A stretch of 64,000 bases of DNA from a virus. Taxonomy: Duplodnaviria > Heunggongvirae > Uroviricota > Caudoviricetes. Made by a program: the position numbers and the translations under genes. The DNA lies in the IMG/VR virus record IMGVR_UViG_2563366977_000001, positions 15,651 to 79,650 of that record, one strand, 5' to 3'. The notes beneath the pieces were generated by a model that was given only the letters and a program-made list of their open reading frames with translations, was not told where the DNA came from and did not search any database. This document shows, one piece after another, positions 2,983 to 63,838 of this stretch. Each line of letters begins with the position of its first letter. Positions within the stretch are counted from its first letter, which is position 1.

Positions 2983-3113
2983 GGTTAAACCCTAAATTCG
3001 GGCGCGGCGTGAAGATTCTTTTGACGAGGTGACAATACTCACTTTGTTATTTAGTCAATAGCATTAGAAAAATAATTTTCGTTAACAATCTTGTGTTAGT
3101 ATGGTTTAATCTT

Positions 3114-3126
3114 AATTTTCTAACAT
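3114..3126 (+). promoter_or_regulatory. Recurrent operator-like motif AATTTTCTAACAT, 16 bp upstream of ORF 3142
   Basis: One instance of a motif found at 12 or more promoter-proximal sites in the window; variant copy in opposite orientation at about 3062-3074. Confidence 0.45.
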
Positions 3127-3141
3127 AAAGCATTAGAACAA

Positions 3142-3534
3142 ATGGCGTACAAGATCTTCGTTTCATACAAAAATGGTGCTAAAAGCCATTCTCTGAATAC
3201 AAGCAGCAGATGCCTTGTAGAAGCTCAACTGTCATCAATCCTTACTGAAAGAGACATTCTTTCCCTGGCTGAACGGATCGTGATTCTCCATTCAGGAAAG
3301 GCTATTCTTAATGTTCCCGCGCTTACCCCGCCTTCTGACGTTTTGGCATCTGTTAAGTGGCCTCAAATTGGCACGCCTGTAAGAGTGGAAGATCCTGTAA
3401 CGACCACTCTTTATATGCCGAAGTCAGTAAGGGATTGGCTTGCTGCGGTTGGTAATGGGAAGGTCAGCGCGGGGCTTAGGAAGCTGGTTGAAATGGCTGA
3501 TATTCCGGAGCTGAAAAATGCATGGAGACAGTGA
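3142..3534 (+). CDS. Hypothetical protein
   Basis: 130-aa ORF preceded by operator-like motif; no recognisable domain. Confidence 0.35.
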   Translation: MAYKIFVSYKNGAKSHSLNTSSRCLVEAQLSSILTERDILSLAERIVILHSGKAILNVPALTPPSDVLASVKWPQIGTPVRVEDPVTTTLYMPKSVRDWLAAVGNGKVSAGLRKLVEMADIPELKNAWRQ

Positions 3535-4004
3535 GTAGAGGAAACATGAGTCACGCGAACCCATCGAAAACACAATATCGTTTAATGCTGGCTATCGCGT
3601 CAGCTATACCAACCAGCCTGAATCCACCCGCTGGCTATCCCGCTATTGTTGATGATTGTTTTCAGTATTACGGTGAAGACATCCTGAGTCAGTCTAAGGC
3701 ACTCAAACAGTTATGCAAGGCAGGCATTCTTCACTGCATAGGCGATCCAGATGATTTTGTAGTCATGCTGGCAGATCGTGACTCTTTTCTGCTGTCCTGG
3801 AAAGCCGGGGCGCGCGAAGCGCGTTTGGGTAATGGTATTGGCTACATCGACTATAGCGATTGTCCGCTGGCATTTGCTGGTGGATATATGCATTGGCATG
3901 AGCGAAATAGAGGCCGTCAGCGCCAGTATCGCTTGAGTGACTTTAACGTCTGTCACGGTTTCGAAGAAGCTGACAGCCAGGACATCTGGCTTCAGGAGCC
4001 TTAA
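3522..4004 (+). CDS. Hypothetical protein
   Basis: 160-aa ORF overlapping the previous ORF by 13 nt. Confidence 0.35.
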   Translation: METVSRGNMSHANPSKTQYRLMLAIASAIPTSLNPPAGYPAIVDDCFQYYGEDILSQSKALKQLCKAGILHCIGDPDDFVVMLADRDSFLLSWKAGAREARLGNGIGYIDYSDCPLAFAGGYMHWHERNRGRQRQYRLSDFNVCHGFEEADSQDIWLQEP

Positions 4005-4324
4005 CCCCCCTTCCCTTCCCAAATCTCCCTATTCCTTTGGTTATTCAGTGCGTTTCGTTGGTTGCATTCATCGATAGTGCTGAATAACTGTTCAGCGTAT
4101 GCCGGATACTTGTTTAACAGCACAGGCGTGTCCTCTGGCACTATGCAAGGGGTATAATCAATCAGATTTCCCTGCGGTTTGCTGGTGGCTTCTACGGTAA
4201 TTTGCATTGGCACGCTGATTGATTTCTTTTGCCCGTTCCCGCTGCATCCTGATAACGTCATCAGGCACACGCACATCATTAACCCCGGCATTGCGTAACG
4301 CAGTTTCAAGACGATTGATTTCAT
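4001..4324 (-). CDS. Rz1-like outer-membrane lipoprotein spanin, overlapping Rz in another frame
   Basis: Lipobox LSGC after a hydrophobic signal, Pro-rich mature part; embedded in and extending past the Rz 3' end. Confidence 0.55.
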   Translation of the reverse strand: MKSIVLKLRYAMPGLMMCVCLMTLSGCSGNGQKKSISVPMQITVEATSKPQGNLIDYTPCIVPEDTPVLLNKYPAYAEQLFSTIDECNQRNALNNQRNREIWEGKGG

Positions 4325-4616
4325 TCTGGCTTTCCTCCCGTTGTTTGATCAGGCTGGTATTCAGTTCTGCTGTTTTGCGCTGGTACTCCTTCTCCAGTGT
4401 TTTAATTCTTTCGTTTTCAGCCATCATGGCAGATCGCGATTTTTCACTTAACTGCAATGCGGTAGAAAGCGTGTTGTTCTCGCTTTCAAGTTGTGATTTT
4501 GAGTCTTCCAGGGAACGGATATACCTGATGTGATCGATAACTGCCGCCGTAGTACGGTAAATTCCATAAATGGCTAAAAGCGCAACTACTATCAAAATTA
4601 TCTTTTTCAAAACCAT
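4158..4616 (-). CDS. Rz-like inner-membrane spanin
   Basis: 152 aa; N-terminal TM helix (IILIVVALLAIYGIY) followed by long coiled coil. Confidence 0.6.
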   Translation of the reverse strand: MVLKKIILIVVALLAIYGIYRTTAAVIDHIRYIRSLEDSKSQLESENNTLSTALQLSEKSRSAMMAENERIKTLEKEYQRKTAELNTSLIKQREESQNEINRLETALRNAGVNDVRVPDDVIRMQRERAKEINQRANANYRRSHQQTAGKSD

Positions 4617-4686
4617 CCTCTTCAGATTTTTTGTTGGTGTGATATGTGTACCAATTTGTAACCATTTATGGGCTTAAATGGTGTGT

Positions 4687-5765: not shown

Positions 5766-5829
5766 CTAACACCTCCTTTTTCTTAAATCTTCTCCACTTT
5801 GTGATTTTCACTCTTCAGATTTCTTACTT

Positions 5830-11182: not shown

Positions 11183-11220
11183 ACTGTGTTAGAAAATGAA
11201 ACTAAATTATCTAACACAGT
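11183..11220. promoter_or_regulatory. Operator-like inverted repeat ACTGTGTTAGA-N16-TCTAACACAGT upstream of rdgC
   Basis: Perfect 11-bp inverted repeat carrying the recurrent TGTTAGA / TCTAACA motif. Confidence 0.45.
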
Positions 11221-14457: not shown

Positions 14458-14608
14458 AGGTCGATTTATCAGGTATCGAAAGGAAGATTTTCGGGAGATT
14501 GTGATTTTGGATGGAGGAGGGGAATTGTTGCAATATGCACTTGCGCACGGTGCAACGGTGCGCTATCATTATGACATTCATTAATAATCATGGAGGATAA
14601 GATGATCG

Positions 14609-17110: not shown

Positions 17111-17335
17111 CAAAGCCCACCTTAAGGTGGGCTTCGCCAGAAATTATTTTCTGGTATTCAGAACGCCATTACCGGACTTTGCCTTGACCAAGTATCACAA
17201 CAGGCTTGACCTGTTATGATAGCTGGTTGCGGGATGTCTGAATTTCTTCAGTCTGCTGCATCCTCGAAGGTTTGGTTCAACATGTACCATTCCTTCACCG
17301 TCATAATAGTGAACTATTCACGTCCTTACAAACAC

Positions 17336-19985: not shown

Positions 19986-20639
19986 TTAAAGTATCACGGT
20001 ATCCTCATCAACTTCTGTCCCTGCCAGTGACTTTGGCTGGGAGGCGGCTGCTTTAACCTTCTCATGCCCAATAATGGACAGGAACGAGGCCATTATCCCT
20101 GCTTTGTTTTCTTTCTCTACCGATCCAGTCATTTGCTTCAGGTAATCCGCGCTGGCAACATTGTGGTATACCGTTGCATAGCAGCACAGAATCATCAGGA
20201 TGTGCTCTGGTCGGATATCTTGCCAGTTAACTCGATAAACCTCTTCACCGTTGCCGTTGTATTCGGTATCGACGATAGAGTCGGGGATCTCGAATGCCCC
20301 TTTGTTCTTGTCAGGCAGGGATAGCAGCCTTTGTAGTTTCAGCTCTCGGTATCTCTCCATGCCGACAATGATCGCCGCTCTGCCGTCGGCGTGCCGTGTT
20401 TTTAATGTTACCTGGCTGGCACCTGTACCGGCTGAAATGGTTGGCGTGATTTCGTCAACCAGCACCTTAAATTCACTTTTACGCAGCTCGGCAATTGCTG
20501 GTGGAATTTTTCGTTTTTGTTCAATAGCAGATGCTGGGAGGGGCTTTACTTTGTCAATTACAAGCGCACCGTCTTTCAGGACTGCCGTAGCCATCAGCGG
20601 CTTGTTAGTCGAAAGGCTGAATATTGCGATCTTTTGCAT
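19986..20639 (-). CDS. Hypothetical protein
   Basis: 217-aa ORF, no recognisable motif. Confidence 0.4.
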   Translation of the reverse strand: MQKIAIFSLSTNKPLMATAVLKDGALVIDKVKPLPASAIEQKRKIPPAIAELRKSEFKVLVDEITPTISAGTGASQVTLKTRHADGRAAIIVGMERYRELKLQRLLSLPDKNKGAFEIPDSIVDTEYNGNGEEVYRVNWQDIRPEHILMILCCYATVYHNVASADYLKQMTGSVEKENKAGIMASFLSIIGHEKVKAAASQPKSLAGTEVDEDTVIL

Positions 20640-20692: not shown

Positions 20693-20904
20693 TTTGGCGT
20701 TATGACTCCCTACCGCGCATCGGCTGAAAGTTAGTCGTCAAAAGAACCTTCAACGGGAGCCGTTTGCGCAATGGATTTTGTCCAGATTGTGATTTCCAGA
20801 ATAGTGTCAACAATTTTTTTGAATTTTTTATTCGCGCTGAATTTGGCCTAAGTCATTTTGGCGTAGATGTTTGCTTTTGTAACATAAAACTTCAGTTTGT
20901 TTAC

Positions 20905-23259: not shown

Positions 23260-23297
23260 TTAGTAGTTAAAGCCCCGGCATGACCGGGGCAAATCTA

Positions 23298-24239
23298 TTA
23301 ACTAACAATCCAGTCGGTCGCTGCTACATCTTCTGGCTGTAAATCAATCGCATAGATCTTGCCGTCGCGAATGGTGCGCCAGTTTTTCCGTGAGCCTCTT
23401 TCGGGCCATACCCAGACACTTTCAGGCCAGGATGCTCGACGGCATACGGTTGCATACCCTGTTTTAATCTTCTCTCTGGCGGTATGCAACGACAGGTTTG
23501 CCTTTGGACTTTCAGGCACAGGATGGTGAATGGCCTGAAATAGCCCCATCTTGGGATGATACCAGCGTTTGTTGCGTGGTTCTGCCTCCGACATAACCTG
23601 CTTAAAGGCTTTCCGGAAGGGGGCCAGGGCCACAATGGAGCGCCGCGCAAGCAAACCGTCGGGAGTTAAAAACTCATGCGTATCAGTGGGTATCCGGTAA
23701 GCGTTGACCAGGTTACGGCATTTGGCTTCAGTCAGGCCACATTTCGCCGCCAACTGGCGGTAGCCAATGTAGCCTTCCGGAATATTACCTTTCTTGATCT
23801 GCTCGACGGTTTCAGCGACTTTGGACACTTGTGCCGATACTTCGGCTACCTGGGCATTAACGGCGTTGATCCGGCGTTCATGCTCAAGATGCATTTGCGC
23901 CATTTCAGCCAGAATTTCGGCTTTTGATTTTAACTGTACCCGGGCATTCTCCAGTTCGCGCCAGCGGTCCACCAGCCGGGCGGTGAATTCGGGAGAGAGC
24001 TGCGCGACGACGACAATACTATCGCGCTTGCCTTGCTCGCCTTCGAAGACATAGACCGGATCTTTGACAACCTTCCCTAAGTTATTGATTCTTTCGACGA
24101 ACTCATTTTGAGTTTCTCGGATGACACCGCTAGCCATCATATTGCGAATGGTACGTAAAACATTGCCGTGACGACTACCAACTAACTCTGCAATATCTAG
24201 GCTACTCATTGTCGCTTTTTGAGAGATGGACAGATTCAT
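23298..24239 (-). CDS. ant: Antirepressor (Rha-family N-terminal domain), P1 ant-like
   Basis: 313 aa; N-terminal SSLDIAELVGSRHGNV Rha-like motif; follows icd-like ORF with ATGA overlap. Confidence 0.65.
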   Translation of the reverse strand: MNLSISQKATMSSLDIAELVGSRHGNVLRTIRNMMASGVIRETQNEFVERINNLGKVVKDPVYVFEGEQGKRDSIVVVAQLSPEFTARLVDRWRELENARVQLKSKAEILAEMAQMHLEHERRINAVNAQVAEVSAQVSKVAETVEQIKKGNIPEGYIGYRQLAAKCGLTEAKCRNLVNAYRIPTDTHEFLTPDGLLARRSIVALAPFRKAFKQVMSEAEPRNKRWYHPKMGLFQAIHHPVPESPKANLSLHTAREKIKTGYATVCRRASWPESVWVWPERGSRKNWRTIRDGKIYAIDLQPEDVAATDWIVS

Positions 24240-24455: not shown

Positions 24456-24560
24456 TTGGCAGCCTCCTTTTGCTAATTTAAGGAGCTACCGCGTGAGGTC
24501 TCAATCTCAATGGCGGTAGCACTGGCTGGGTTGAGACTACCGGCGCAAAAGGGAACCGGC
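24456..24560 (-). ncRNA. Candidate c4-like antisense RNA region
   Basis: Noncoding leader before icd with complementary stems (GCTACCGC / GCGGTAGC, GGTCTCAA / TTGAGAC); by position only. Confidence 0.3.
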
Positions 24561-25256
24561 CTGCCTTTCGGCAGCCCAGCCAGCACTACCATTGATCTTG
24601 GAGCTATACGCTACGTATGGCTGTGCGATGGCATGACACAAAAAAAGACGCTTTCGGCGTCTGTGTCGCCTTTTGCATTATCCGGGGTCTCAATCCCGGC
24701 ACCCGTTTTTCTAAGGTGCCGTAGAAATATACCTCACGATAATGCCAGGGCGCAACAGTCAGTATTTTATGCTTTGGCGGATTTCTTCCGGGCTTGCTTG
24801 CAGGCGTAGGCCATTGCTTTAGCTTTCACTTCATCCAGCTTTCCGGTGATCACTTCTTTTCCGAGAGTGACAAACCAGTCATAGCAACCGCCAGTGATGT
24901 TCTGGATTTGAAAGTTGAGGTAGCGAACGGTCATTTTGACACCCCCAGCGCGAGTAAAGAATGCAGATTATCGCGTGAGTGGCGGACAACGAGTGATGGG
25001 AAAGGACAGTAGCTGTTCATAGTGTAGTGACTCCTTGCTTTCGGAGCCGCCATCGACTGTTCCACGGTCTGGTGGCGGCGCAATAAAGGTTGGAACACCG
25101 TGAGTCAACGGGGGCTTTTCAGCCACCTATATTGCACCGCCATTGGTATGGCGGCGGCAATCATACGAAAAACCAAACGGTTTGTCTCAAAAAGTTGACC
25201 GGTGTACCAATCGGTTGTGAATGTACAACGGCGAATCTCACAATTCAACTTAAAAT

Positions 25257-25268
25257 GTTAGAAAATTA
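25257..25268 (-). promoter_or_regulatory. Operator-like motif (TGTTAGAAAATT) at head of the immI leader
   Basis: Recurrent motif about 800 bp upstream of icd. Confidence 0.4.
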
Positions 25269-25841
25269 ATTCATTAATTCAGTCACCATCTGATACAACG
25301 TCATTTCATCAGCATTGTGCCGCCTGAAATCTGCTTTGCCGCCTATTTTTCCATCAGCATGAACAGGAACCAACCAGGGGTATTGCTCGCGGATCTCTGC
25401 TGGCGCTGCGTGTTGATGGTGCCATTTACACAAAGGGAGGACGTATTTATGCGCGTTCTCTGCTGTTCTCCCAAAGATGTGGTGCAGGGATACCACAGGG
25501 CTATGCTGTCCGTGCATATGGCAGGCAATGCAGGGGAGAGCACCGATGGCAGTTTGTATCCGGCGCTCATCTGCTGTGAGTGTTCTGCCTTTCAGGCCGC
25601 GTGACGCGCGCGTTTTTTTGACAGGAGCAGAAGCGGCCTTCTCTTTTCTTCGCTGTTCATATTGCTTCGCTTTTTCAATTTTCTTTTGCCGATATTCAGG
25701 CGATGCGGCTTTTTCTCGCGCACGCTGCTGCTGGCGTTGAGCTTGCTGAAGACGCTTTGCCCTTTGTTCCTCCCGCCATTTCGGATCAGCCAGTTTTTGC
25801 AGGGCTTTTTGTGTCTGTTTCTCCCAATAGCTTTGCTTCAT
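25266..25841 (-). CDS. ref: Ref-like HNH endonuclease (recombination enhancement function)
   Basis: Trimmed to ATG 25841; K/R/Q-rich N-terminal region then Cys/His-rich HNH-like C-terminus (CIACHMHGQH ... CKWHH). Confidence 0.65.
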   Translation of the reverse strand: MKQSYWEKQTQKALQKLADPKWREEQRAKRLQQAQRQQQRAREKAASPEYRQKKIEKAKQYEQRRKEKAASAPVKKTRASRGLKGRTLTADERRIQTAIGALPCIACHMHGQHSPVVSLHHIFGRTAENAHKYVLPLCKWHHQHAAPAEIREQYPWLVPVHADGKIGGKADFRRHNADEMTLYQMVTELMN

Positions 25842-25886: not shown

Positions 25887-25918
25887 TGTTAGAAAATCAA
25901 AATTGATTTTCTAACACA
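25887..25918. promoter_or_regulatory. Palindromic operator pair GTGTTAGAAAATCAA / TTGATTTTCTAACAC between ref and DUF4406 gene
   Basis: Perfect inverted repeat of the recurrent motif in a divergent promoter region. Confidence 0.5.
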
Positions 25919-29110: not shown

Positions 29111-29142
29111 GTGTTAGAATATTGATTTTAATTTTCTAACAT
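29111..29142. promoter_or_regulatory. Operator pair GTGTTAGAATATTGA / AATTTTCTAACAT upstream of ORF 29184
   Basis: Inverted pair of the recurrent motif about 40 bp before start codon. Confidence 0.5.
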
Positions 29143-29183: not shown

Positions 29184-30179
29184 ATGAGTGCAATAATCAC
29201 ACCTCATTTCGTAAACGGAGCTGGTGTGGCTGTCTTTCCGGTAGACAAGCCCACCAGCAACTACATTGGCGCAGGTCGCCGTTTCATTATCTCTCCACTT
29301 CCGCGCGAACAGGCTGAAAACACGCCAGATGGCGTAGTGGATCTGAACTATTCGCTGGTTGCCAACCAGTCTCTGAAAGCATTTTTTCAAAGCGAGCGCG
29401 TATTTAACGCATTAGGCGGTGAAGATTCGCTTGTTCATTGGGTAAGTTCCAATATCCACGATTGCCAGGCGCACGATAAGCGCGATTGCAGCCACCAGCT
29501 AACCACTCATTTCTATAACGGCTCTGCCGTTCGCCTGTGCTGGAAGCATGATGCGGAATACATGATGAAGGGGTACGGCAAGCTGGATGACCAGTTATCC
29601 CTGAATCGTGCCAACTGGGTTATGAACTGGGCTGCGAGCGAGTTAAAACTACCGCCAGAACGCGATCTGAGCATGGTTGAACTCACTTTTTGGGCCATTC
29701 GCCGGAATCTGAAAGACGAGCTGCCAGATGAAGCCGGTCGCATTGCATTTTGTCAGCCAAAACAGGAAATCCCTACCGGCACACTGAAAGAATCGGATAT
29801 CACCTGGGAGCACAGCACCCGTGAGCTGGTGGACATAACCGCAGAGCAGATCGTCAACCTGTCTGTAGATGAGGATTCCGGCCTGCTGTATATGCGCCGA
29901 CCAAAAGCGGTTCTCGGTAAAAGCCCGGCTTATCTCCGGTTTGTGATTTCTCGTCCGTGCATCGGATGCGGAGGCAAAGTTAATCACCCGTTCATGTACC
30001 GCGCCCGCTCGTTAAACGAACACGATCGCTGGGCCGTTCCTCTTTGCGATGAATGCGCCAGAAGCGCAGAAAACGATGTCCGGGCATGGGAAAAAACACA
30101 TGGCATACGCCTTTACGTAGCCGCCAACCAGCTTTTCGACTTCGCCATCGAGCGCGGAGTGATCACGTTCAATAACTGA
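29184..30179 (+). CDS. Hypothetical protein with C-terminal Cys-rich (zinc-binding-like) region
   Basis: 331 aa; CIGCGG ... CDEC cysteine pairs near C-terminus. Confidence 0.4.
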   Translation: MSAIITPHFVNGAGVAVFPVDKPTSNYIGAGRRFIISPLPREQAENTPDGVVDLNYSLVANQSLKAFFQSERVFNALGGEDSLVHWVSSNIHDCQAHDKRDCSHQLTTHFYNGSAVRLCWKHDAEYMMKGYGKLDDQLSLNRANWVMNWAASELKLPPERDLSMVELTFWAIRRNLKDELPDEAGRIAFCQPKQEIPTGTLKESDITWEHSTRELVDITAEQIVNLSVDEDSGLLYMRRPKAVLGKSPAYLRFVISRPCIGCGGKVNHPFMYRARSLNEHDRWAVPLCDECARSAENDVRAWEKTHGIRLYVAANQLFDFAIERGVITFNN

Positions 30180-41246: not shown

Positions 41247-41303
41247 AGTACCCTCCGCAATAGGCGAGGGTACTTTACATTAAAATGCACTGTCTAAAAA
41301 GAT

Positions 41304-41317
41304 TGTTAGAAAATTAA
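41304..41317 (-). promoter_or_regulatory. Operator-like motif TGTTAGAAAATTAA just after recombinase stop
   Basis: Recurrent motif instance. Confidence 0.4.
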
Positions 41318-41318
41318 T

Positions 41319-42347
41319 TTATGAATCCATCAGGCGACTATTTGCACCAACGGATGCCCCGCTACGGCGCAAATATCGCATAAGTGTTTCGGGCTTTTTC
41401 CATGTGCCTTCCTGCATGATCTCGACCATTGACACCTGTTTCTCAGCCATATCAATTGCCGCACCAACACGCGCACTATGGCCTGTCCACGTCCGGTATC
41501 TTCCCTTGTTCGGCGTGGCATCTCGTTTGTTCAGCAACCCCCAGGCATCGCTGAATATTTTCTCCATTGCAGGTGCAGTAAGGGGCGTTGTCGTGATTCT
41601 GGCCTTATTACTGCGGTGTATTGGCGGGAATAGCACCGCGTCCGGATGTTCTCGAAGTCCGGACACCTCCAGCCAGTCGTTCAGTACGGCGGTAGTGTAA
41701 CGAGAAAGCACCTTATCAAGTCCGGCGGCGGTCGTGATGGTCTTCGTGTGTGAAATATGCAGCGTTACAGTGTCACCTGTTTGGTCCAGATCTCCGACGC
41801 GGATGCGCGAGATTTCTGACATACGCATCAGGGTATTGTATGCCACGAAGAGAAACGCCCGATTGCGCAGGTCCACCAGCCGCTCGGAACGGGAAAGCAA
41901 CACGTCGAGCAATTTCAGATCATCCCACCGCAACGGTATAGCCTGGCCTGTTCGCTCACCTTTTTCCGTTGCCGCTTCGCGCCGGATGCGCCGCATGGCC
42001 AGAGACACACTTTTATCGTCCGACAGCGGCGGGAGGCCACATTGCGAAAGCAGCATGTTAAGCATGGCATAGTGCTTATCAATGGTGGTCGAGGCCAGAT
42101 CGGCCTCATGCAACTGGAGAAGATACTCGCGGGCCATTTCCGGCGTAATCGGGAACCAGGGGTGCTGGCGCGAATTACACCACCGCGCCCAGGAATGAAA
42201 CACCAGACGGAGATCTCGAAGCGTATTTGGGGCATAAGCTCCCTGGTCGTTCATGAACTGCATAAAGTTTTTTGCAGCTTCCTGGTATTCGGTGCCTATA
42301 TCGCGCAGAAAACCACCAGAACCGCCGGAGATAACTAGTTCACCCAT
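41319..42347 (-). CDS. cre: Cre-family tyrosine site-specific recombinase (Dre-like)
   Basis: 342 aa; colinear with P1 Cre (SWARWC, LNML, RN.AFL..AYNTL, TKT, GHSARVGAA, C-terminal Tyr in RYLRR). Confidence 0.9.
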   Translation of the reverse strand: MGELVISGGSGGFLRDIGTEYQEAAKNFMQFMNDQGAYAPNTLRDLRLVFHSWARWCNSRQHPWFPITPEMAREYLLQLHEADLASTTIDKHYAMLNMLLSQCGLPPLSDDKSVSLAMRRIRREAATEKGERTGQAIPLRWDDLKLLDVLLSRSERLVDLRNRAFLFVAYNTLMRMSEISRIRVGDLDQTGDTVTLHISHTKTITTAAGLDKVLSRYTTAVLNDWLEVSGLREHPDAVLFPPIHRSNKARITTTPLTAPAMEKIFSDAWGLLNKRDATPNKGRYRTWTGHSARVGAAIDMAEKQVSMVEIMQEGTWKKPETLMRYLRRSGASVGANSRLMDS

Positions 42348-42499
42348 GAAACTATTAAACCTCTATATACAGATAACGCTACGTGAAAAATAGAAAACTG
42401 ACAGGGTAGTTATAAGTTAATTTTCAAAATTCAAGCCTTTGATTCGAGGCATGATTTTTCATCCTTGTCAATACTACCTGTTTACTGGAGATTATAGCC

Positions 42500-42531
42500 T
42501 AACTTTAAATAATGCCAATTATTTAAAGTTA
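42500..42531. other. lox-type recombination site (rox-like)
   Basis: TAACTTTAAATAATGCCAATTATTTAAAGTTA perfect palindrome; readable as 13-8-13 (arm CTAACTTTAAATA vs loxP ATAACTTCGTATA, 9/13); 150 bp upstream of recombinase. Confidence 0.8.
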
Positions 42532-42612
42532 GAAATCAGGACTTTTTTCCCAAAAAAAACACCGACCAGATCACTTCGCAAATCCGTCAGCCATGCGGTA
42601 GCTGTTCCTGGT

Positions 42613-42714
42613 TACATTTTCTAATAGGAACAATCAAAAAAAAGCGGTTTTATCCTTTACTCACCTTGTTATTCAGCATAAATTTGTCACAGGACTTTTA
42701 TGTTAGAAAACTAA
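42613..42714 (+). promoter_or_regulatory. Two operator-like motifs (ATTTTCTAATA at about 42616, TGTTAGAAAAC at about 42701) upstream of ORF 42729
   Basis: Recurrent motif in both orientations in the leader of the gene at the c1 position. Confidence 0.45.
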
Positions 42715-42728
42715 ATCGAGTAGGAATA

Positions 42729-43766
42729 ATGAGTAAGAAGTCGATCGAGAATGAGTACAAACGGTTCCTGCAAACCGCTGAACGGTGGAAAGAGCTGGTG
42801 GTCGCAAACTCTGTTTTCCATGATACCAGTTATGTTGGCGAGGAATTTCGCCATGTTGCATTAACACATGATCCGGCTGTATTAGAAGAAGCTGAAAAAT
42901 GCATAGCCGAATGGAAAGCCTTTGTTGATCTGTGTCGCAAGGATGATGACAAAGCCTCAAACATTGTTGAGTCGGTTTATTTACCGATCCCATTCATTGT
43001 TGAGGATACTAATCAGAGTACGCATATCGTTATGCAAAGCGCAACCACAACGAGAACATTTACGCGCGAAGACCTGCTGAAAAAATACGATAAAACTATA
43101 AAGAAAAGCATGAAAAACAGGATATTTTCACAGGTTGTCGGTGCGCTTGAAGAAGAACGCAGATTCTTCGCCGCTGAACGTGAGGGCGAGGTATACCGCG
43201 CAAGAAAAGAAGGTTATACCGATGTGGTGATTACCACCAATATCGAGGGCAACAATGGACTTTCACGCTTCCGAGTGGGTGCGCACGGTGCGCTGATCTT
43301 TGCAAGAAAAGCAAACACAGAGATTCCCGTTGTTAACAACGTTGGTGAGCGCCGTACCCTTACCATTTACACTGGCATTAAACCGCTTCCGTGCGGACTT
43401 CTCGGCGAATTTGACCTTTATCGGGTTCGTGATCTGGAAAAGCAGCAGCCAAGCTATGTCGTGAAGTCATATATCCTGAGAAACATTGATATCCGCAATC
43501 AGAGTTTAAAAAACAAATCAGATAAAATGCTGGCCGAAGCCGATCCAGCCATACACCAGATCGTTAGCCGGAAAATTCAAGAGGCTAAAGATGCAATGGC
43601 AAGGCTGGATAAAATGGACCTGGAACTACTGGAAGTTATGATTGCCTCCGGCGATGACCTGACAGGCATCCGCCTTACTGAAGCCAGGAAAAAATACGGT
43701 AAAAGCGTTGAAGAACGCTATGGGTACACATTCACACAAACGATGTACGCGGCAAAACTCTGGTAA
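42729..43766 (+). CDS. Hypothetical protein at the position P1 uses for c1 repressor
   Basis: Trimmed to ATG 42729 (AGGAA RBS); no similarity to P1 C1 that I can recognise. Confidence 0.4.
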   Translation: MSKKSIENEYKRFLQTAERWKELVVANSVFHDTSYVGEEFRHVALTHDPAVLEEAEKCIAEWKAFVDLCRKDDDKASNIVESVYLPIPFIVEDTNQSTHIVMQSATTTRTFTREDLLKKYDKTIKKSMKNRIFSQVVGALEEERRFFAAEREGEVYRARKEGYTDVVITTNIEGNNGLSRFRVGAHGALIFARKANTEIPVVNNVGERRTLTIYTGIKPLPCGLLGEFDLYRVRDLEKQQPSYVVKSYILRNIDIRNQSLKNKSDKMLAEADPAIHQIVSRKIQEAKDAMARLDKMDLELLEVMIASGDDLTGIRLTEARKKYGKSVEERYGYTFTQTMYAAKLW

Positions 43767-45312: not shown

Positions 45313-46676
45313 TAGTCATCCTCCGGCTGGTCTATCACAATCTCGTCATCTACAGCATCAAAACCGGTATCCCCCGCGTCATAATCACCGTAGATATCAG
45401 CCGTGGCGGAAGGGTCTATATTCAGGTCTTCATCATTGGCCTCAAATTCACCGGCTTTACGTTCTCCGTTCCGGTCGTAATCCCCCATCCCAAGCCTATC
45501 AACGATTTTCGCTACTTCAGCCCGGCGTTGTGCAAGCCATTGTGGGAGTCCAGCTTGTTGCTCGGCAAACTGCTTCGCCTCTTTATCCAGTTGCTCATCA
45601 TCAACATCGTTAACGTCAGAAACCGGAGGCTCCAGAAGTGAGATCGCTTTTGCCGCTCGTGCCGCCAGGATAGCTGGGACACTGACGCCCTGCCGCTCGA
45701 TATATTCAGCTACGCCTATATCGTCCAGCTCCTCGCGCTCACGCATACGTATAGCGGCGGCGATAACCCTGGCGGCGCGTGCGTCAGCGCCAATGCGATA
45801 CTCAATCTCCTTGCCACGCTGCTCGGCCTGCAGGCGGGCAATCGCCAGTTTTTCTCTGGCCTCAGCCTCCCTGAATGCCTGCTGACGCGCGCCCTGCGCA
45901 AGTTTTTCATCCCCCTGGCGTAGCTTCTGCTCGGTCTGGTAGATGGCTGCCAACCTACTGATAAAGTCATTCATGTAGTAGGCCGCATCGCTTATTAGGC
46001 CGAGAAGACGCTGCCCTGGGTGCATCCCCTCTGGCTGTGTATCGCCGAGGGCGTCAATCTCTTCCTGTAGTCGCTCCGCTTCCTGGTCAACGATGGCCTG
46101 ATACTGAATTGCTCGTTCCTGCGCCATCTGTATCGCAAGTCGTAAATGTTCAGTCGCGCCGTTCTTCATCATCTCACGGGCGACGTTGGTGGCAGGCAAA
46201 GTGGCGCTTTGAGCTGATGAGTCAGGGATCATTTGCAATGATCCCTTGTTTCGTTGGGCTTTTTCGCTGCTTTTAGGGATCATTTCTCCCATTTCATCAC
46301 AAAATGATCCCTTCACATCCTTGTGTATCCTGTTGTTATTACTTGGTTTTTCTTTGTGATCCGCATTTTGTTTTTGCGGCATGGCGCGGAACTGTCCACC
46401 AGCTAACGATTTGTCAGTTTTTGTAAATTCTGTGCTTTTATCAGCCTTTTTTTGCTCTTTTTTTGAGCCGGTGGCGCTGCTTTTTGCGCGCTGTTTTGTA
46501 CTTTTCCCGGCAGCCTTAGCTTTCGCCTTAACCTCATTTTTTTTCATATTGAGATGCTTTCTGGCGGTGTTAAAGCTGAGGTCATGCTGCTCGCAATATT
46601 CTTTTATGGTGATCCCGGTTTCTTCTCTTAACTCCAGGAACTTAGCTCGATGCGCCTCCCAGTTAATTAACGTCAT
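45312..46676 (-). CDS. pacA: Terminase small subunit PacA (contains pac site)
   Basis: 454 aa; N-terminal HTH-like segment, K-rich linker, acidic C-terminus; GATC-rich pac repeats inside 5' part. Confidence 0.7.
   Translation of the reverse strand: MTLINWEAHRAKFLELREETGITIKEYCEQHDLSFNTARKHLNMKKNEVKAKAKAAGKSTKQRAKSSATGSKKEQKKADKSTEFTKTDKSLAGGQFRAMPQKQNADHKEKPSNNNRIHKDVKGSFCDEMGEMIPKSSEKAQRNKGSLQMIPDSSAQSATLPATNVAREMMKNGATEHLRLAIQMAQERAIQYQAIVDQEAERLQEEIDALGDTQPEGMHPGQRLLGLISDAAYYMNDFISRLAAIYQTEQKLRQGDEKLAQGARQQAFREAEAREKLAIARLQAEQRGKEIEYRIGADARAARVIAAAIRMREREELDDIGVAEYIERQGVSVPAILAARAAKAISLLEPPVSDVNDVDDEQLDKEAKQFAEQQAGLPQWLAQRRAEVAKIVDRLGMGDYDRNGERKAGEFEANDEDLNIDPSATADIYGDYDAGDTGFDAVDDEIVIDQPEDD
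46225..46373. other. Candidate pac packaging site: clustered GATC-containing octamers
   Basis: GGGATCAT / ATGATCCC at about 46225, 46238, 46276, 46304 plus GTGATCCG at 46366, inside the pacA 5' region. Confidence 0.55.
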
Positions 46677-47065
46677 AGGGAAGCCTCACGTTTTTTCACA
46701 GCGGCGTTCCATAGCTGGTTAGTCATCGCCACCAACTGACGCTGCTCCTTTCGTAATTGAGCTTCTATCTTTCGGTTGGTGTTTTTCACCAACAGCCGAC
46801 CGAATTCAGGAGTGCGCCCGCGCACCTTGAACTGGTATCCATTCAGGCCATGTAACCAATATTTCCGGGGGTATACGCGGTCGTCTATTTCGCAAATGGC
46901 ACGACTGGAACGAACAAAAAAACGTATGATGTTATTTACGTTTACGCGCGACACATGAAGGTGAGGATATTGTGCTTTTGCACGGCTGGTGATTTCGGTG
47001 ACCGTCAGATAGCAGTCAGCCCTGATCATGATATCCGCTATTTCGGCGCTACTGATTTGCTCCAT
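46673..47065 (-). CDS. Putative late promoter activator (P1 lpa / gene 10 position)
   Basis: 130-aa ORF immediately upstream of pacA, overlapping its start; called by synteny only. Confidence 0.4.
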   Translation of the reverse strand: MEQISSAEIADIMIRADCYLTVTEITSRAKAQYPHLHVSRVNVNNIIRFFVRSSRAICEIDDRVYPRKYWLHGLNGYQFKVRGRTPEFGRLLVKNTNRKIEAQLRKEQRQLVAMTNQLWNAAVKKREASL

Positions 47066-47140: not shown

Positions 47141-47172
47141 TGTATTAGAAAATTAATATTAATTTACTAACG
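47141..47172. promoter_or_regulatory. Operator pair TATTAGAAAATTAA / TTAATTTACTAACG upstream of lpa-position gene
   Basis: Inverted pair of recurrent motif about 75 bp before the start codon. Confidence 0.5.
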
Positions 47173-48582: not shown

Positions 48583-48658
48583 TGGTGGCCCCTACCGGAC
48601 TTGAACCGGTGACCGTGCGATTATGAGTCGCCCGCTCTAACCACTGAGCTAAAGGGCC
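48583..48658 (-). tRNA. tRNA with CAU anticodon, most similar to tRNA-Ile2 (lysidine) rather than tRNA-Met
   Basis: Hand-folded cloverleaf: acceptor GGCCCTT/AGGGGCC, anticodon arm GGCGA-CTCATAA-TCGC, T-loop GGTTCAAGTCC, 3' CCA. Confidence 0.75.
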
Positions 48659-49087
48659 AGATTACTGTTAATTACGCTTACGCTTTTTGCCAGAACCGCG
48701 TAAGGCTTTTGCCGCTTGCTCTACCCCGTATGCAACCACCAGCAGAAACAATAATGTCCACTCCGGGTTTTTATCGGCAAACGCCCAAAAATCCATCACT
48801 TGCAGCCACCTTTTAAGACAAAACGCCATTGCTGTTAGGTTGCGGTGCCGGGTGCCTCCCGGTGACGTTAACCAGTTAACAATTAACGCCGGATCACTTA
48901 TGGATTCTCGTTACGCCAGTAAAAAGACCACCTTTACTGTTTTAACTGTTCCGCGTGCGCTTAGCCGCATTCACCGCAATGGTAAGAGCATTTGGCTGAC
49001 TGGGCGGCGATGACGCCTGTACGCATTTGGTGATCCGGTTCTGCTTCCGGCATTCGCTTAATTAGCCAAATACTCTTAACGTTGCGA

Positions 49088-49174
49088 TGGCGGAGAGTAA
49101 TGGAATCGAACCATCATCGCTTGCGCGACGGGACGGTTTTCAAGACCGCTTGAGCACCATGCTCCCTACTCTCC
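49088..49174 (-). tRNA. tRNA-Ser (UGA anticodon), long variable arm
   Basis: Acceptor GGAGAGT/ACTCTCC, discriminator G, anticodon loop CTTGAAA, 17-nt variable arm, T-loop TTCGATT, CCA. Confidence 0.6.
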
Positions 49175-49415
49175 AGTGATTGTGGTGGTCGGTACTGATC
49201 TCCGACTGCGCCTCTTTTTTTCATAGCCCATAAGGCCGGTCAGTGCGCTTGATGACTGAGGCATCGATATTTACTACGCCGCCTCGTTGCCATAGGGCGG
49301 ACTTGCGCGCCAGCAACGCGCATTCACCACAACGGAAAGAGCATTTATGGCTCGCATCGCGGGAAAAAGCCCACGGTAGAGAGTCGAACTCTACAAATGC
49401 TCTTACCTGTTGTGT

Positions 49416-49491
49416 TGGTGCCGGTTAACGGGATCGAACCGCTGACCATTCGCTTACAAAGCGACTGCTCTACCAACTGAGCTAAACCGGC
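49416..49491 (-). tRNA. tRNA-Thr (UGU anticodon)
   Basis: Acceptor GCCGGTT/AACCGGC, D-arm AGCTCAGTTGGTAGAGC, anticodon loop TTTGTAA, T-loop GGTTCGATCC, CCA. Confidence 0.8.
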
Positions 49492-49495
49492 AATT

Positions 49496-49582
49496 TGGTG
49501 GGGAGTGATGGAGTCGAACCACCCGAGTCGCAATGACAGTAGATTTACAGTCTACACCGCTACCTCTACGGACTAACTCCCC
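49496..49582 (-). tRNA. tRNA-Tyr (GUA anticodon)
   Basis: Acceptor GGGGAGT/ACTCCCC, anticodon arm GTAGA-CTGTAAA-TCTAC, long variable arm, CCA. Confidence 0.8.
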
Positions 49583-49587
49583 TAAAT

Positions 49588-49662
49588 TGGCGATGGTGGG
49601 TGGATTCGAACCACCGACCAGTTGGTTAACAGCCAACTGCTCTACCGCTGAGCTACACCATC
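49588..49662 (-). tRNA. tRNA-Asn (GUU anticodon)
   Basis: Acceptor GATGGTG/CACCATC, anticodon arm GTTGG-CTGTTAA-CCAAC, T-loop GGTTCGAATCC, CCA. Confidence 0.85.
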
Positions 49663-50148: not shown

Positions 50149-50975
50149 AAATATCCCACTCGCGGTATTGCCACTTAGGCGTATGGTCAACCTGGCAACT
50201 CGGTGTCCTCAACGGGGAAGGAATAACCCCGCCATACTTACCGCCGCGCCTGTCGCGGTTATCGCTACGTATCAACATAAAAGCCGACTGCCTGAGCAAG
50301 ATTCACTTTCAAAGGCCCGCAGAAAGGAATCCATAGTCGGCTTTTATCTTGAAGCGGCTCTCTCTCCGCCCGTCACCGTCCTATCCCGGTTGTCGCGTTT
50401 GCCACGCCAGCCGTAACGAGGTTTAAAGTCTTTTCACGTTTTCATCACTCGACTGCCGTCTATGGCTGTTCGTTGCAGCGGGGGTGCCTCCCCCTGGGGA
50501 TATCCCCGGCCTTACCCCCATTCTTTCAAAACACAATGCAAGGCCACATCCGCATAGGTGCATTACCGCAACGTTAAGGAGACTCAGAGTCAGCAAAATA
50601 AGAGGAAAACCCAACTCTGCGCCTCCTTAACGTTGAGGATGTTCACTGATGATGACCCGATGCAGCCTGGCCCACTTAACATACTCACTGCCAGATCATC
50701 ATCAATGAACACCTTAAAAAGACCTTCCGTGGCTCAAGTCACTGTCGTTTACTCCGTAAAATGCTCTCGCTGAAACCACTTTACGCACTAAACCTGCCGG
50801 GCATGTATTTGCACGGTGCCGGAGCTTTCCCTTACCTTAAAATTTACTTTCTAACACTTAAATTTGTTTGATGCTGGTGGGGAAAGACAATGAAGTGACT
50901 ATCAAACCCGCAAGCGACATGGGAAGCTCCCCACCAGCACGAAAAATTCTATGTTAAGTTAACCCTATAATCAAT

Positions 50976-52217: not shown

Positions 52218-52235
52218 GTTTGTTCCCTTCCTTGA

Positions 52236-52254
52236 AATTAGTTTTCTAACACAT
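52236..52254. promoter_or_regulatory. Operator-like motif (AATTAGTTTTCTAACACAT) upstream of ORF 51009..52217
   Basis: Recurrent motif followed by GGAAGGG RBS and ATG. Confidence 0.45.
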
Positions 52255-52295: not shown

Positions 52296-52320
52296 AAAAC
52301 CCGCCAACTGGCGGGTTTAT
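52296..52320 (-). terminator. Minus-strand terminator (AAACCCGCCAGTTGGCGGGTTT + T-run)
   Basis: Perfect hairpin followed by TTTTTTG on minus strand, after stop of ORF 52327..52653. Confidence 0.55.
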
Positions 52321-52849: not shown

Positions 52850-53293
52850 TTAATCAAGATTTACATATTCCGTGATAGCTTTTATGGCTTCATCGGCACT
52901 GCGCGCCTCAAAGCAGTAATAGCCTGCTTCCGTGAGGCGGGTCATCCAGACGAGCTGTTCGGGAGTCAGACGGTTTCTCCCGTGCTTCATCTCAATGCGC
53001 ATTCCGTGATACCCACCACGAGCAAGGTCAATAGAAAGGTCCGGATAGCCCTTCTTCTGACCTTCTGCCACCATCTTAATGGCTGTCCTTTTGCCTCTCA
53101 GGCCGCCGTTCGGTGTTGAGTGTGTGTGCTCATACACGTATCGCATGTTGCGATACAGCCAATCCAGAACGCGAACCTGTTCGTAATGTTCGTAATTCCG
53201 TTTTAATAAGTCAGGATTTCTTTCTAACTCTCTCAGTGCAGCAGCGTGCGGGGATATTTCAGAATACGCACTATGATGCCTGCGTCTTCGCAT
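52850..53293 (-). CDS. VRR-NUC-like (PD-(D/E)xK) nuclease domain protein
   Basis: Trimmed to ATG 53293; GYPDLSIDL ... EMKHGRNRLTPEQ pattern; operator motif AAATTTCTAACACAAA abuts start. Confidence 0.5.
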   Translation of the reverse strand: MRRRRHHSAYSEISPHAAALRELERNPDLLKRNYEHYEQVRVLDWLYRNMRYVYEHTHSTPNGGLRGKRTAIKMVAEGQKKGYPDLSIDLARGGYHGMRIEMKHGRNRLTPEQLVWMTRLTEAGYYCFEARSADEAIKAITEYVNLD

Positions 53294-53482
53294 TAAATTT
53301 CTAACACAAACTTCCTGAAATAATGAACACGATAATAACAAGAGCGTTAGTTTTATCAAAACCGAGGGAAATACTACTAAAGAGATAGGCGGATGCAACA
53401 GGTCGGACTTGTTTTTAGAGTAAATGGTGATGCGGGTCAACAAGCCGGGTAAATTGTATGTCATTTACCCAACTTGTTATTT

Positions 53483-61068: not shown

Positions 61069-61163
61069 AACCGTTAAATCCGCCTTAAGCGGTACGGTTT
61101 GAGAGGGTATGGAGTGTGTTAATTTCGCAGAATCACACCCCGAAGGTTCTTACTCAAAAGGGA

Positions 61164-61637: not shown

Positions 61638-61824
61638 GACAATCTCTTTACTCAAATAGATAACGCAAGCTAACAATAACCAATGTTATCACTAACTTAG
61701 CGCAGTTTAACTTTTCTGTTAGATAATACATTGAATAAAGTTAAAGATGAATGCCGTTTAATAATGTTTGGTGTAATAGAAATCACATTCTCAACATAGT
61801 TATTGCTCTTTTTTCATTCGGAGC

Positions 61825-62316
61825 ATGATTATGATCAATAATGAACCTCGCTGGCTTATTGAAGCCCGTAAAAATATTGGAGTCACCGAAATAAAAGGAG
61901 CGAAACACAATCCTGAGATCGTCCAGTTCTGGCGGGATATTAAGCGCAGCGGAATTAAAGACGACGAAACGCCGTGGTGCGCTGCATTTGTTGGTGCAAT
62001 GCTGGAACGTGTAGGCATCCGCTCAACAAGATTTGAGTCGGCAAAATCCTATCTGGATTGGGGCGAGAAATTAGATACACCGGCATATGGATGTATCGTT
62101 GTATTTACTCGCACAGGCGGTGGGCATGTAGGCTTTGTTGTCGGACGCCGCGCCAATGGCGATCTGCTTGTCTTGGGTGGGAACCAGGGGGATGCTGTTA
62201 ATATTCGCGCATTCCCCACATCAAGAGTGTCTGGCTATCGCTGGCCTACTGGAGAACCACGCAATACAGCTCTGTTACCAGTCGGAGACGCAGCGACCTC
62301 AACTAATGAGGTATGA
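61825..62316 (+). CDS. Putative cell-wall hydrolase (CHAP / NlpC-P60-like)
   Basis: 163 aa; conserved Cys (ETPWCAAFVG) and His (GGGHVGFVVG) spaced as in papain-fold amidases. Confidence 0.45.
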   Translation: MIMINNEPRWLIEARKNIGVTEIKGAKHNPEIVQFWRDIKRSGIKDDETPWCAAFVGAMLERVGIRSTRFESAKSYLDWGEKLDTPAYGCIVVFTRTGGGHVGFVVGRRANGDLLVLGGNQGDAVNIRAFPTSRVSGYRWPTGEPRNTALLPVGDAATSTNEV

Positions 62317-62347
62317 AAAAGCCCCGGCCAGGCCGGGGCATCACACT

Positions 62348-63252
62348 TCAAGTTACGATCCAATCATTACCGACTGCATCCGCCGTCGATAAATCGACTT
62401 CCCGGATCTGGCATCCATTAATACAAAACCATCCGGTAGTAGAGCAATTATCAGGCCAGACCCATACACCAACACTCCATGCTTCACGGCGGCACACTTC
62501 AGCCTGTCCTTCCCTGATTTTTTTTACCGCCTGCATGATGTCCATCACTCGCCTCCCCAACCGATCACCTGGAATTGCCCCATCCTTGGGTGATACCAGC
62601 GTTTTCCTCGGTGTTCAGCCTCCGACATCATCAGGGTAAAGGCATTCATGAAGGGAGATAAGGCCACAATAGTACGACGCGACAATACCCCCTCTGGCGT
62701 CAAAAACTCATGAGTATCTGTGGGGATCTGGTAAGCGTTGACCAGGTTGCGGCATTTGGCTTCAGTCAGGCCGCATTTCGCCGCTAACTGGCGATAGCCA
62801 ATGTAGCCTTCCGGAATATTGCCTTTCTTTATTTGCTCGACGGTTTCAGCAACCTGGCTAACCTTTGACTCAACAACATGAAGCCGCTTTTGCTGCTGAA
62901 CTGCATTTGCAGCCATTGCAGCGATCATCTCTATTTCGGTCAACGGCTGGCGTACTTGTTCTTCCAGTTCGCGCCAGCGGTCCACCAGCCGGGCGGTGAA
63001 TTCGGGAGAGAGCTGCGCGACGACGATAATACTATCGCGCTTGCCTTGCTCGCCTTCGAAGACGTAAGCCTCGACACTACGGCGTAGTCCTAAGTTATTG
63101 ATTTTTTCGAAAACCTGCAATGCAGGAAGTTGAATAACTCCAGATTTAGCCAGGCGCTCTATTGATATTTTTACGTTATCTGGACGACTTCCCACCAGCT
63201 CCGCGATCTCAATGCTGGTCATTGATGGCTTTTCGAGAATGCAGATATCCAT
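62348..63252 (-). pseudogene. Second ant-like antirepressor copy, split into two ORFs by a frameshift
   Basis: ORF 62545..63252 matches ant residues 1-about 235 and ORF 62348..62560 matches the ant C-terminus in another frame; long stretches over 90% nt identity to 23600-24060. Confidence 0.5.
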
Positions 63253-63476
63253 CAGTGAGCCTCCGCAATGCCGGGATTGGTAATATTGCGATACCAGGGA
63301 TTAGTGTTTGGTTGTGGGGAAGTAGAGAAACGACCAGTAAGAACACCATATTGATCAGGGATCAGAGAACGGGCTTCTTTTTCGGTTGCGGCAATTGCGA
63401 AGTGATCGCAGTGTTTTTGCAGGGAGTGGAAACGCCAGATGAATTCTGGACGTGAGCAAGGATTGGCATTAACCAT
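63252..63476 (-). CDS. Second icd-like small protein
   Basis: 74 aa; shares EFIWRF.S.QKH...AATE.EAR with ORF 24239..24454. Confidence 0.45.
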   Translation of the reverse strand: MVNANPCSRPEFIWRFHSLQKHCDHFAIAATEKEARSLIPDQYGVLTGRFSTSPQPNTNPWYRNITNPGIAEAH

Positions 63477-63804
63477 AGTTACGGCCTCACTAACAGGTTT
63501 AACAACCTGCTACCCGCTGTCAAACAGGTGGCAGGACGTGACAGGGTTGACAGACTGGCGTTAGTGAAACCAGCAGGCCGAAGCCTCCCCATCACGCCCC
63601 ACCATAATTCGGGCGTAACGCGGTTTACGGACACAAAAATACCGCAATATCGGAAATCTGCGGTTGTCCGCACTAACATTCAGGCTGTCAAACCTGGTCG
63701 CAGAATTTGCTACGACGGCATGAATATAAGCCTGAACATTAGAAAGATCAACAGAATTTTTATCAGATGCTGTTTTTTTGTGACGATGTAAATCATACAT
63801 TCTT

Positions 63805-63838
63805 GATTAGAAACATCAATTTAATTTTCTAACATACA
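63805..63838. promoter_or_regulatory. Operator pair TTGATTAGAAACATCAA / AATTTTCTAACATA upstream of second immI copy
   Basis: Inverted pair of recurrent motif. Confidence 0.45.

Follow-up and report, generated by a model that had tools for sequence, protein, structure and literature searches.

Probable operator set of a C1-family repressor in a D6-like, P1-family plasmid prophage

The DNA analysed here, a stretch of 64,000 nucleotides that we refer to as the window, covers positions 15,651 to 79,650 of the IMG/VR virus record IMGVR_UViG_2563366977_000001. By sequence similarity, it is a D6-like plasmid prophage of the P1 family: its identity is 98% to E. coli plasmids, NZ_LR890273 among them, and ~88% to phage D6, and the gene table of D6, when transferred onto the window, is collinear with it from the sheath gene round to repL. 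Copies of a short motif, TGTTAGAAAAT, are scattered over the window, and a reading of the letters made without database searches (hereafter, the sequence-only reading) had proposed that they constitute the operators of a C1-type repressor. Positional homology to the operators of P1, conservation in the D6 clade, change of the motif in relatives with a diverged C1, and a strong intergenic bias all speak for this proposal, so that the motif very probably represents the operator set of the C1-family repressor of this prophage, the predicted product of 345 amino acids (aa) encoded at 42729-43766. We infer that this protein binds the sites and represses through binding.

The c1 gene and the repeated motif

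The c1 homologue lies beside rox/dre and the pacAB genes, as it does in the immC region of P1, and the gene order dre-rox-c1-pacB-pacA-lpa is the order annotated in the immC record of D6. The encoded protein falls into phrog_1678 (E 1.7e-159), the PHROG that also contains P1 C1, and aligns with P1 C1 in BLASTP at 21% identity over 241 aa (E 2e-7); P1 C1 consists of 283 aa, compared to 345 aa for the protein from the window. Judged by its score against NCBIfam phage_rep_C1 (see below), the window C1 is a distant homologue of P1 C1, not an equivalog. Searches returned neither a Pfam domain nor a relative of solved structure for it, and a single-sequence AlphaFold model, with a mean pLDDT of 42, was unusable. 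More than 100 plasmids in PLSDB encode a C1 of this type, with variants that are ~99%, 81%, 67-69% and ~30% identical to the window C1, and plasmid prophages like D6 are frequent in E. coli, Salmonella and Shigella.

The repetition of TGTTAGAAAAT is confirmed. Both strands of the window together contain 9 exact copies, against 0.03 expected from dinucleotide-preserving shuffles, and 20 matches with at most one mismatch, against 1.42 expected; no shuffle attained the observed count at either stringency. The motif frequency is thus far above that of shuffled sequence, the comparison on which the sequence-only reading had staked its claim, and every position listed there was recovered. In a count of 10-mers that took no account of the motif, TGTTAGAAAA ranked first for over-representation in the window (11 copies, ~0.16 expected), and the identical count on P1 returned ATTGCTCTAA, the known C1 operator. 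Beyond the top word, the sole other recurrent class of 10-mers is Chi. Words that contain Chi (GCTGGTGG) rank second among the over-represented 10-mers in each P1-family genome examined (the window, D6, P1 and the Shigella, Pantoea and Citrobacter plasmids), with 6-20 copies against ~0.1-0.2 expected.

Alignment of the copies reveals that the information runs on 3' of the 11-mer, to yield a 17-mer, TGTTAGAAAATtAAtTT, with an A/T-rich 5' flank. The scan with a position weight matrix (PWM), one of the checks originally suggested for the motif, was carried out with a 19-mer matrix, which finds 23 sites of at least 15 bits in the window against ~0.2 in Markov simulations. This matrix was trained on the same window, and the independent tests are therefore the shuffle counts, the unbiased 10-mer count and the scans of other genomes. 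Non-coding DNA, which makes up 13.5% of the window, holds 19 of the 23 sites (binomial P = 1.6e-13).

At five loci, the sites are paired in an exact register, with an 11-mer, 8 bp and an inverted 11-mer forming a 30-bp palindrome; a sixth pair, at 63805-63834, is degenerate. The spacing of 14-18 bp that had been given for the inverted pairs is inaccurate. Single sites without a partner show 6-10 mismatches at the position where the partner would be expected. The distance from site to start codon ranges from overlap to ~110 bp, and reaches ~340 bp for icd, with the c4 RNA intervening, which is a broader range than the 3-50 bp initially attributed to every site. The predicted sites are given below in the order of their coordinates, along with c1, lpa and the P1 operators that are their counterparts by position; two weak candidates are included.

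3062-3078 (+) and 3109-3125 (-): two single sites in the spacer between the divergent gene 23 and orf52; 21.0 and 25.7 bits; no counterpart in P1
11187-11216: putative 30-bp bivalent operator upstream of the hrdC(rdgC)-methylase operon; half-sites with 0 and 1 mismatch; P1 Odmt (upstream of uhr-hrdC-dmt)
23291-23307 (-): weak candidate at the stop of ant (orf82), upstream of pmgF; 16.3 bits, 2 core mismatches; possibly due to chance
25256-25272 (+): single site overlapping the ref stop codon, antiparallel to ref; 26.1 bits; P1 Omat overlaps the ref stop in the identical place and orientation
25887-25916: putative operator, a perfect 30-bp palindrome between ref (-) and orf88 (+); both halves exact; P1 Oref
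29112-29141: putative 30-bp bivalent operator upstream of a pdcB-like HNH/DUF968 gene (29184-30179, +); found by PWM and exact register; no annotated counterpart in P1
41304-41320 (+): single site at the 3' end of dre, upstream of the orf117-orf116-dut block; 27.2 bits; no annotated counterpart in P1
42610-42626 (-): distal single site in the rox-c1 interval, pointing toward dre; 12.9 bits; P1 Oc1e (facing cre)
42701-42717 (+): putative c1-proximal single operator, 11 bp upstream of the c1 ATG; 22.9 bits; P1 Oc1
42729-43766 (+): c1 homologue, candidate repressor; 345 aa, 81% identical to the annotated c1 product of D6
46673-47065 (-): lpa; Pfam BPP1_LPA, E 3.7e-50
47143-47172: putative 30-bp bivalent operator upstream of lpa; half-sites of 26.9 and 22.0 bits; P1 Olpa
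50840-50856 (-): single site ~90 bp downstream of the predicted promoter of the tRNA operon; 24.7 bits
50977-51006: putative 30-bp bivalent operator that abuts a predicted promoter into the tRNA cluster; found by PWM and exact register; P1 Obanab, a bivalent operator at the head of the tRNA/ban operon
52235-52251 (-): single site just upstream of pmgS, after a terminator-like hairpin; 26.8 bits; P1 OpmgRa/b
53290-53306 (-): single site at the start of the pmgM-like (VRR-NUC) gene; 20.8 bits; nearest P1 counterparts O26 and Oppp
61717-61733 (+): weak intergenic candidate in the darB / lysozyme spacer; 16.1 bits
63805-63834: putative ImmI operator, with a strong half at 63818-63834 (-), 27.7 bits, and a degenerate partner with 4 mismatches; P1 Oc4

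Operators of P1 and motifs of the relatives

In P1, 22 dispersed C1 operators share an asymmetric 17-bp consensus (PMC8546580). The P1 record AF234173 annotates C1 operators as well as Lpa-dependent late promoters, and places operators at ref, the ref stop (Omat), uhr-hrdC-dmt, the tRNA/ban operon (bivalent), pmgL/M, pmgN...ppp, pmgR/S, pmgT, lpa, c4, kilA-repL and c1 (several), with one facing cre. Nine of the 11 motif-bearing genes that the window shares with P1 bear an operator in P1 as well (hypergeometric P of ~6e-4 at the operon level, which is liberal, and 0.02 under strict counting, both based on a rough classification of our own). The similarity to the scatter of the P1 operators, noted in the sequence-only reading, thus extends to the individual positions: the common targets include c1, cre/dre, lpa, ref, the 3' end of ref, hrdC/dmt, the tRNA operon, pmgR/S, pmgL/M, c4-icd-ant and repL. 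P1 likewise encodes a homologous repressor, of the same PHROG, beside a lox/rox recombinase and the pac genes; likewise has ~20 asymmetric 17-bp sites dispersed across a plasmid prophage of ~90 kb; and combines monovalent with bivalent operators, as does the window.

There are also differences. Bivalent sites are commoner in the window (5-6 of ~13 loci) than in P1 (2 annotated) and span 30 bp, compared to 28 bp in P1. Extra sites that have no P1 counterpart are found at three loci of the window (pdcB, the 3' end of dre, and the spacer of gene 23 and orf52), all three of them conserved in D6 and in the Shigella plasmid NZ_CP026808. The repL site is seen only in D6 because the window ends inside repL. 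In tblastn searches with P1 proteins (E < 0.01), only Icd, RepL and PmgT were matched. Neither Coi, an antirepressor, nor Lxc, a corepressor, was detected in the window or D6, these being small proteins whose remote homologues could escape such a search, and the same holds for ImcA/B, Ant1 and KilA, so that the modulators of C1 in the D6 clade appear to differ from those of P1, being either missing or replaced. The antirepressor genes of the window belong to another family than those of P1.

Among the relatives, D6 (NC_050154 / AY753669), the type of the clade, combines a collinear genome and a C1 that is 81% identical to that of the window with the same motif at the same positions, some of the pairs that are intact in the window (ref, lpa) being degenerate in D6; the C1 of the Shigella plasmid is 69% identical. 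The window PWM finds 15 sites of at least 12 bits in D6, along with 18 sites in the Shigella plasmid, with ~1 expected in each, and these are located at the same gene positions. It finds no sites in P1 or in Citrobacter and a single one in Pantoea. Conversely, a PWM of the P1 operator finds sites in P1, none in the window, one in D6, and 0-1 in every non-P1 genome scanned. When the lpa, c1 and ref spacers of the window are aligned with those of D6 and the Shigella plasmid, the copies of the motif stand out as islands of conservation in otherwise diverged sequence.

The Citrobacter and Pantoea relatives, in which C1 is ~30% identical to the window protein, have WWTCTAAGG, putatively a third type of operator, in front of c1, lpa, ref and rdgC as well as at the dre 3' end:

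Citrobacter NZ_CP099371, WWTCTAAGG: 42745, 50513, 50584, 55344, 56852, 63001, 63181, 66238, 76766
Pantoea NZ_CP134736, WWTCTAAGG: 21168, 27587, 73431, plus palindromes upstream of ref and rdgC

Counting the 9-mer with one mismatch (16 found, 17.6 expected) is too permissive to reveal enrichment and was for that reason replaced by PWM scans across genomes. The WWTCTAAGG matrix gives 12 sites in Citrobacter, a circular result given that the matrix was built from these sites, 6 in Pantoea against 1.3 expected, and 0-1 in the window, D6, the Shigella plasmid and P1. Hence three clades of C1 go with three types of motif, at conserved positions.

Several apparent signals in the relatives were discarded. 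The top k-mers of Pantoea are RepB-type iterons (TGGTTTCATGG, ~12 copies flanking repB, at 923-1299 and 45798-45861), and those of Citrobacter are an 8-bp tandem repeat (TGAGTATA, ~10 copies at 17163-17245); the operators are related to neither. The C1 of NZ_MK356557, nominally 46% identical, comes from a frameshift-ridden assembly and was ignored, and a suspected natural chimeric C1 in an Enterobacter IncF plasmid, which might have tied specificity to one domain, turned out to be only a c1 remnant truncated by an insertion sequence (IS). This remnant, at 20001-20417 of NZ_CP058198, consists of a D6-type c1 truncated by IS5, together with a truncated terminase gene, inside an IncFIA/FIB plasmid, and is debris of a D6-like prophage.

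The D6 records annotate c1 but not operators, and public annotations of D6-like elements list neither operators nor late promoters. A full-text literature search on the motif and on D6 operators returned only unrelated papers; an earlier description may exist.

Doubts, other explanations and the late promoters

The likeness of the motif to the P1 operator in sequence, as distinct from position, is only marginal. The consensus of the P1 operator, ATTGCTCTAATAAATTT, is not matched by the sites in the window. The best register is with its reverse complement, where ~10-11 of 17 positions agree and a TTAGA core is shared, so that the alignment noticed in the sequence-only reading (11 of 16 positions) stands as the best one, but not as a match beyond what a shuffled null gives. 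For the reverse-complement register speaks the presence of the TCTAA/TTAGA core in the Citrobacter/Pantoea word, too; for the forward register, the orientation of four single sites (c1-proximal, dre-facing, ImmI and ref 3' end), which is that of P1 Oc1a, Oc1e, Oc4 and Omat. The palindromes of Pantoea, CTAA-N8-TTAG, have the geometry of the P1 bivalent operators.

With regard to promoters, a strict scan places sigma-70-like sequences at three loci: one abuts the tRNA-operon pair, another lies a short distance upstream of the VRR-NUC site, and the third is located 18 bp downstream from the lpa pair. A lenient scan adds TTGAT(T/G) hexamers that resemble -35 elements in the 8-bp centres of the ref, pdcB and ImmI palindromes, with -10-like hexamers 16-17 bp on. 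These additional candidates do not reach the threshold of the strict scan, and overlap of the sites with sigma-70 promoters is only suggestive.

A number of points weigh against the assignment of the sites to C1. The window C1 is only 21% identical to P1 C1 and, at 23.9 bits (E 2.5e-5), misses the equivalog cut-off of 500 of NCBIfam phage_rep_C1 (NF041318); the accessory proteins Coi and Lxc are absent from the window and D6 as far as tblastn can tell. The motif-motif score of 9.8 compares with 7.7 +/- 1.3 for a column-shuffled null, the 95th percentile of which is 9.9. If the register with the TTAGA core is the true one, the pairs in the window (TTAG-N18-CTAA) would be opposite in polarity to those of P1 and Pantoea (CTAA-N8-TTAG). 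The strict scan supports promoters at three loci only, with the ref and pdcB candidates below threshold, and there is no overall promoter-like enrichment. Finally, all genes, that of Lpa included, co-diverge among the clades, so that replacement of the motif by clade does not alone single out C1; what is specific to C1 is the position of the sites, not the co-divergence.

Another phage-encoded regulator, such as an orf72-type or antitoxin helix-turn-helix protein, or a host factor might occupy the sites, perhaps as an activator of early or middle genes, and we see a small chance that this is the case. The co-divergence makes the covariation of motif and repressor non-specific for C1, and strong sigma-70 promoters are not consistently present at the sites, as would fit activator-dependent promoters. 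However, the sites occupy the positions of experimentally defined C1 operators of P1, including the one directly before c1, and wherever C1 is of the D6 clade, the motif has been retained. Moreover, the position and orientation of the sites relative to starts and predicted promoters are variable, with overlapping, upstream and downstream placements, which is typical of operators but not of an activator box.

It is highly improbable that the motif is a promoter element of constitutive or early promoters, resembling an extended -10 (TGnTAGAAAAT) and lacking a dedicated binding protein. Neither the perfect 30-bp palindromes nor the conserved AT-rich 3' extension to 17 bp are promoter features, and in other clades the motif is replaced en bloc despite the same host RNA polymerase. 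The half-site does hold -10-like hexamers after TG (GAAAAT, or GATAAT in the copy at 11206), but the best -10 register, TAGAAA, is without the invariant final T; several single sites point to the downstream gene, but those at the 3' ends of ref and dre point antisense into the upstream gene.

The alternative that TGTTAGAAAAT serves as the box at which the Lpa activator recognises late promoters, which was raised in the sequence-only reading and could appeal to the two sites in the spacer preceding the capsid gene 23 and to several sites near "putative morphogenetic" genes (pmgS, pmgM), is rejected, given that in the complete D6 genome no copy lies upstream of prt, ddrB/darA, lydA, R/S, sit/pmgB, gene 7 or gene 26, that the motif precedes lpa and c1 themselves as well as early genes, that pmgR/S and pmgL/M of P1 are annotated as being under C1 control, and that late operons carry a different box, AAATCACA-N7-(T/C)AnnnT. 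The late block of D6 (22.5-54 kb, 31 kb), with the portal, Dar, lysis, tail-fibre, baseplate, tail-tube, sheath and capsid operons, contains no copy of the motif; the 15 sites of D6 include one before repL and one before icd/ant.

A scan of the window for the late box of P1 (AAGTGACTT-N4-TAnnnT) found essentially none, and late promoters of the D6 type were therefore sought de novo. The leaders of the D6 late operons share the word GAAATCACA, followed after 7 nt by a -10-like hexamer. The word lies 38-63 bp before prt, ddrB, lydA, R, pmgB, gene 23, upfC, gene 7 and the lysozyme gene; in the case of mat, the distance increases to 150 bp. The window has 4 exact copies of the box, where 0.27 would be expected; they precede upfC, gene 7, mat and the lysozyme gene, and a variant is located in front of gene 23. 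The positions of this D6-type box, AAAT(C/A)ACA-N7-(T/C/G)AnnnT, are:

Window: 3032-3052 (-), 5787-5807 (-), 14487-14507 (-), 20775-20795 (-), 61780-61800 (+)
D6: 19214, 25234, 27740, 31524, 38128, 45504, 54137, 56911, 67406, 72113

The late operons that carry it are those of the capsid, portal, Dar, lysis, tail fibre, sit/pmgB, gene 7, upfC, lysozyme and mat, and the AAATCACA box is probably the late-promoter box of the D6 type; it is annotated in none of the records examined. The late promoters of P1 consist of an Lpa-dependent -22 box, AAGTGACTT, and a -10. The window, which encodes an Lpa homologue, has a two-part promoter of the same layout, whereas the sequence of the box, AAATCACA, is different, and these boxes are separate from the TGTTAGAAAAT sites, as at gene 23, where the late box (3032-3052) is distinct from the two motif sites (3062-3125).

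Predicted regulation and individual loci

Under the assumption that the TGTTAGAAAAT sites are operators of the C1-family repressor, C1 in the lysogen would occupy ~13 dispersed loci, with each asymmetric 17-bp half-site binding one molecule and each 30-bp head-out palindrome two, by analogy with P1. Binding would shut early and lytic-entry promoters, the predicted targets being lpa (and, via lpa, all late genes), the c4-icd-ant immunity module, repL, ref, hrdC and the methylases, the tRNA operon, pmgS and pmgM, pdcB, and orf52, and binding near c1 would result in autoregulation.

Such an operator set is an expected feature of the P1-family phages, here with a site sequence other than that of P1. 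What appears to be new here is the recognition sequence and the preference for 30-bp palindromes in the operator set of a diverged C1. The P1 strategy of one repressor acting on many scattered operators would then persist among C1 proteins that have diverged strongly, even as the recognition sequence changes. Together, the operator consensus and the late box would define the lysogeny regulon, make immunity groups predictable from sequence, and offer targets for tests of induction and superinfection immunity in elements able to carry resistance genes. As a tentative extension, which we rate as somewhat short of probable, the D6-clade C1 might embody a separate immunity specificity within the P1 family that differs in detail from P1: a half-site, TGTTAGAAAATtAAtTT, sharing at most the TTAGA core with P1; a longer repressor; no Coi/Lxc layer; and operators that are mostly 30-bp palindromes, possibly of inverted polarity relative to the bivalent sites of P1 and Pantoea. 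If this is true, then, with WWTCTAAGG of Citrobacter and Pantoea, there would be at least three mutually orthogonal C1/operator pairs that define immunity groups among enterobacterial phage-plasmids and are usable as orthogonal repressor parts.

Next to c1, the site at 42701-42717 is fully conserved in D6 and the Shigella plasmid, along with a putative -35 (TTTACT) and -10 (TAAATT), and its location between this putative promoter and the start codon fits autoregulation. The distal site, TTTTCTAA at 42610-42626, is the sole conserved island of an otherwise diverged stretch. The 32-bp rox site (42500-42531) harbours a near-consensus sigma-70 promoter, TTGGCA-16-TATAAT (11/12 matches, 42491-42518, -), with its -35 inside the rox spacer and directed toward dre. 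At the other end of dre, the 41304-41320 site is conserved in D6 (89946) and the Shigella plasmid (75802), and its place is taken in Citrobacter by that plasmid's own motif type (55344); a possible role is that of a roadblock or of looping with the c1-proximal sites. A terminator-like hairpin, read by eye, is present at 41247-41277, between this site and the start of orf117.

The lpa-upstream pair at 47143-47172 is conserved in D6 and the Shigella plasmid. Between ref and orf88, the entire palindrome constitutes the conserved block of the spacer, and its centre, AATCAAAATTGATT, contains back-to-back TTGATT hexamers resembling -35 elements, so that one operator could close two divergent promoters. 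The site at the ref stop is present also in D6 (75978) and the Shigella plasmid (9516). The hrdC pair has its equivalent in D6 at 64114/64129; the pdcB pair is conserved in D6 (80707/80722) and in the Shigella plasmid (6940/6961); and the gene 23/orf52 spacer carries a site in D6 (54201), the Shigella plasmid (25698) and Pantoea (73431).

The predicted promoter at the tRNA-operon pair is TTGATT-17-TAGAAT, from 50974 to 50946. Downstream of the pair lies a cluster of five tRNAs (Met, Ser, Thr, Tyr and Asn; 48583-49662, -). The annotation of D6 has just three tRNAs (Ser, Thr and Asn), on the opposite strand relative to the flanking genes. The pmgS site has its D6 equivalent at 10315, and the hairpin that precedes it, at 52297-52318 (-) between pmgR and pmgS, comprises 9 pairs followed by a run of T and is terminator-like. 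Just upstream of the VRR-NUC site, which has an equivalent at 63674 in the Shigella plasmid, there is a promoter-like TTGATA-16-TATTAT with a TG extension, from 53359 to 53332.

Downstream of the ImmI operator follow c4-a1b1 (63677-63729), the C4 RNA (63524-63609), icd and ant; by Rfam, the order after the 63818 site, a1b1 target, C4 RNA, icd and ant, is the same as in ImmI of P1. Altogether, ImmI-like modules occur twice in the window, and in both of them a C4 antisense RNA, identified by Rfam, lies upstream of icd and of an antirepressor gene. In the first module, the C4 RNA at 63524-63609 (-) is accompanied by the a1b1 target at 63677-63729 (-); in the second (24509-24596, -, and 24641-24719, -), an isrK-like RNA takes the place of a1b1. 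A match to sroH is located elsewhere in the window, at 17112-17297 (-).

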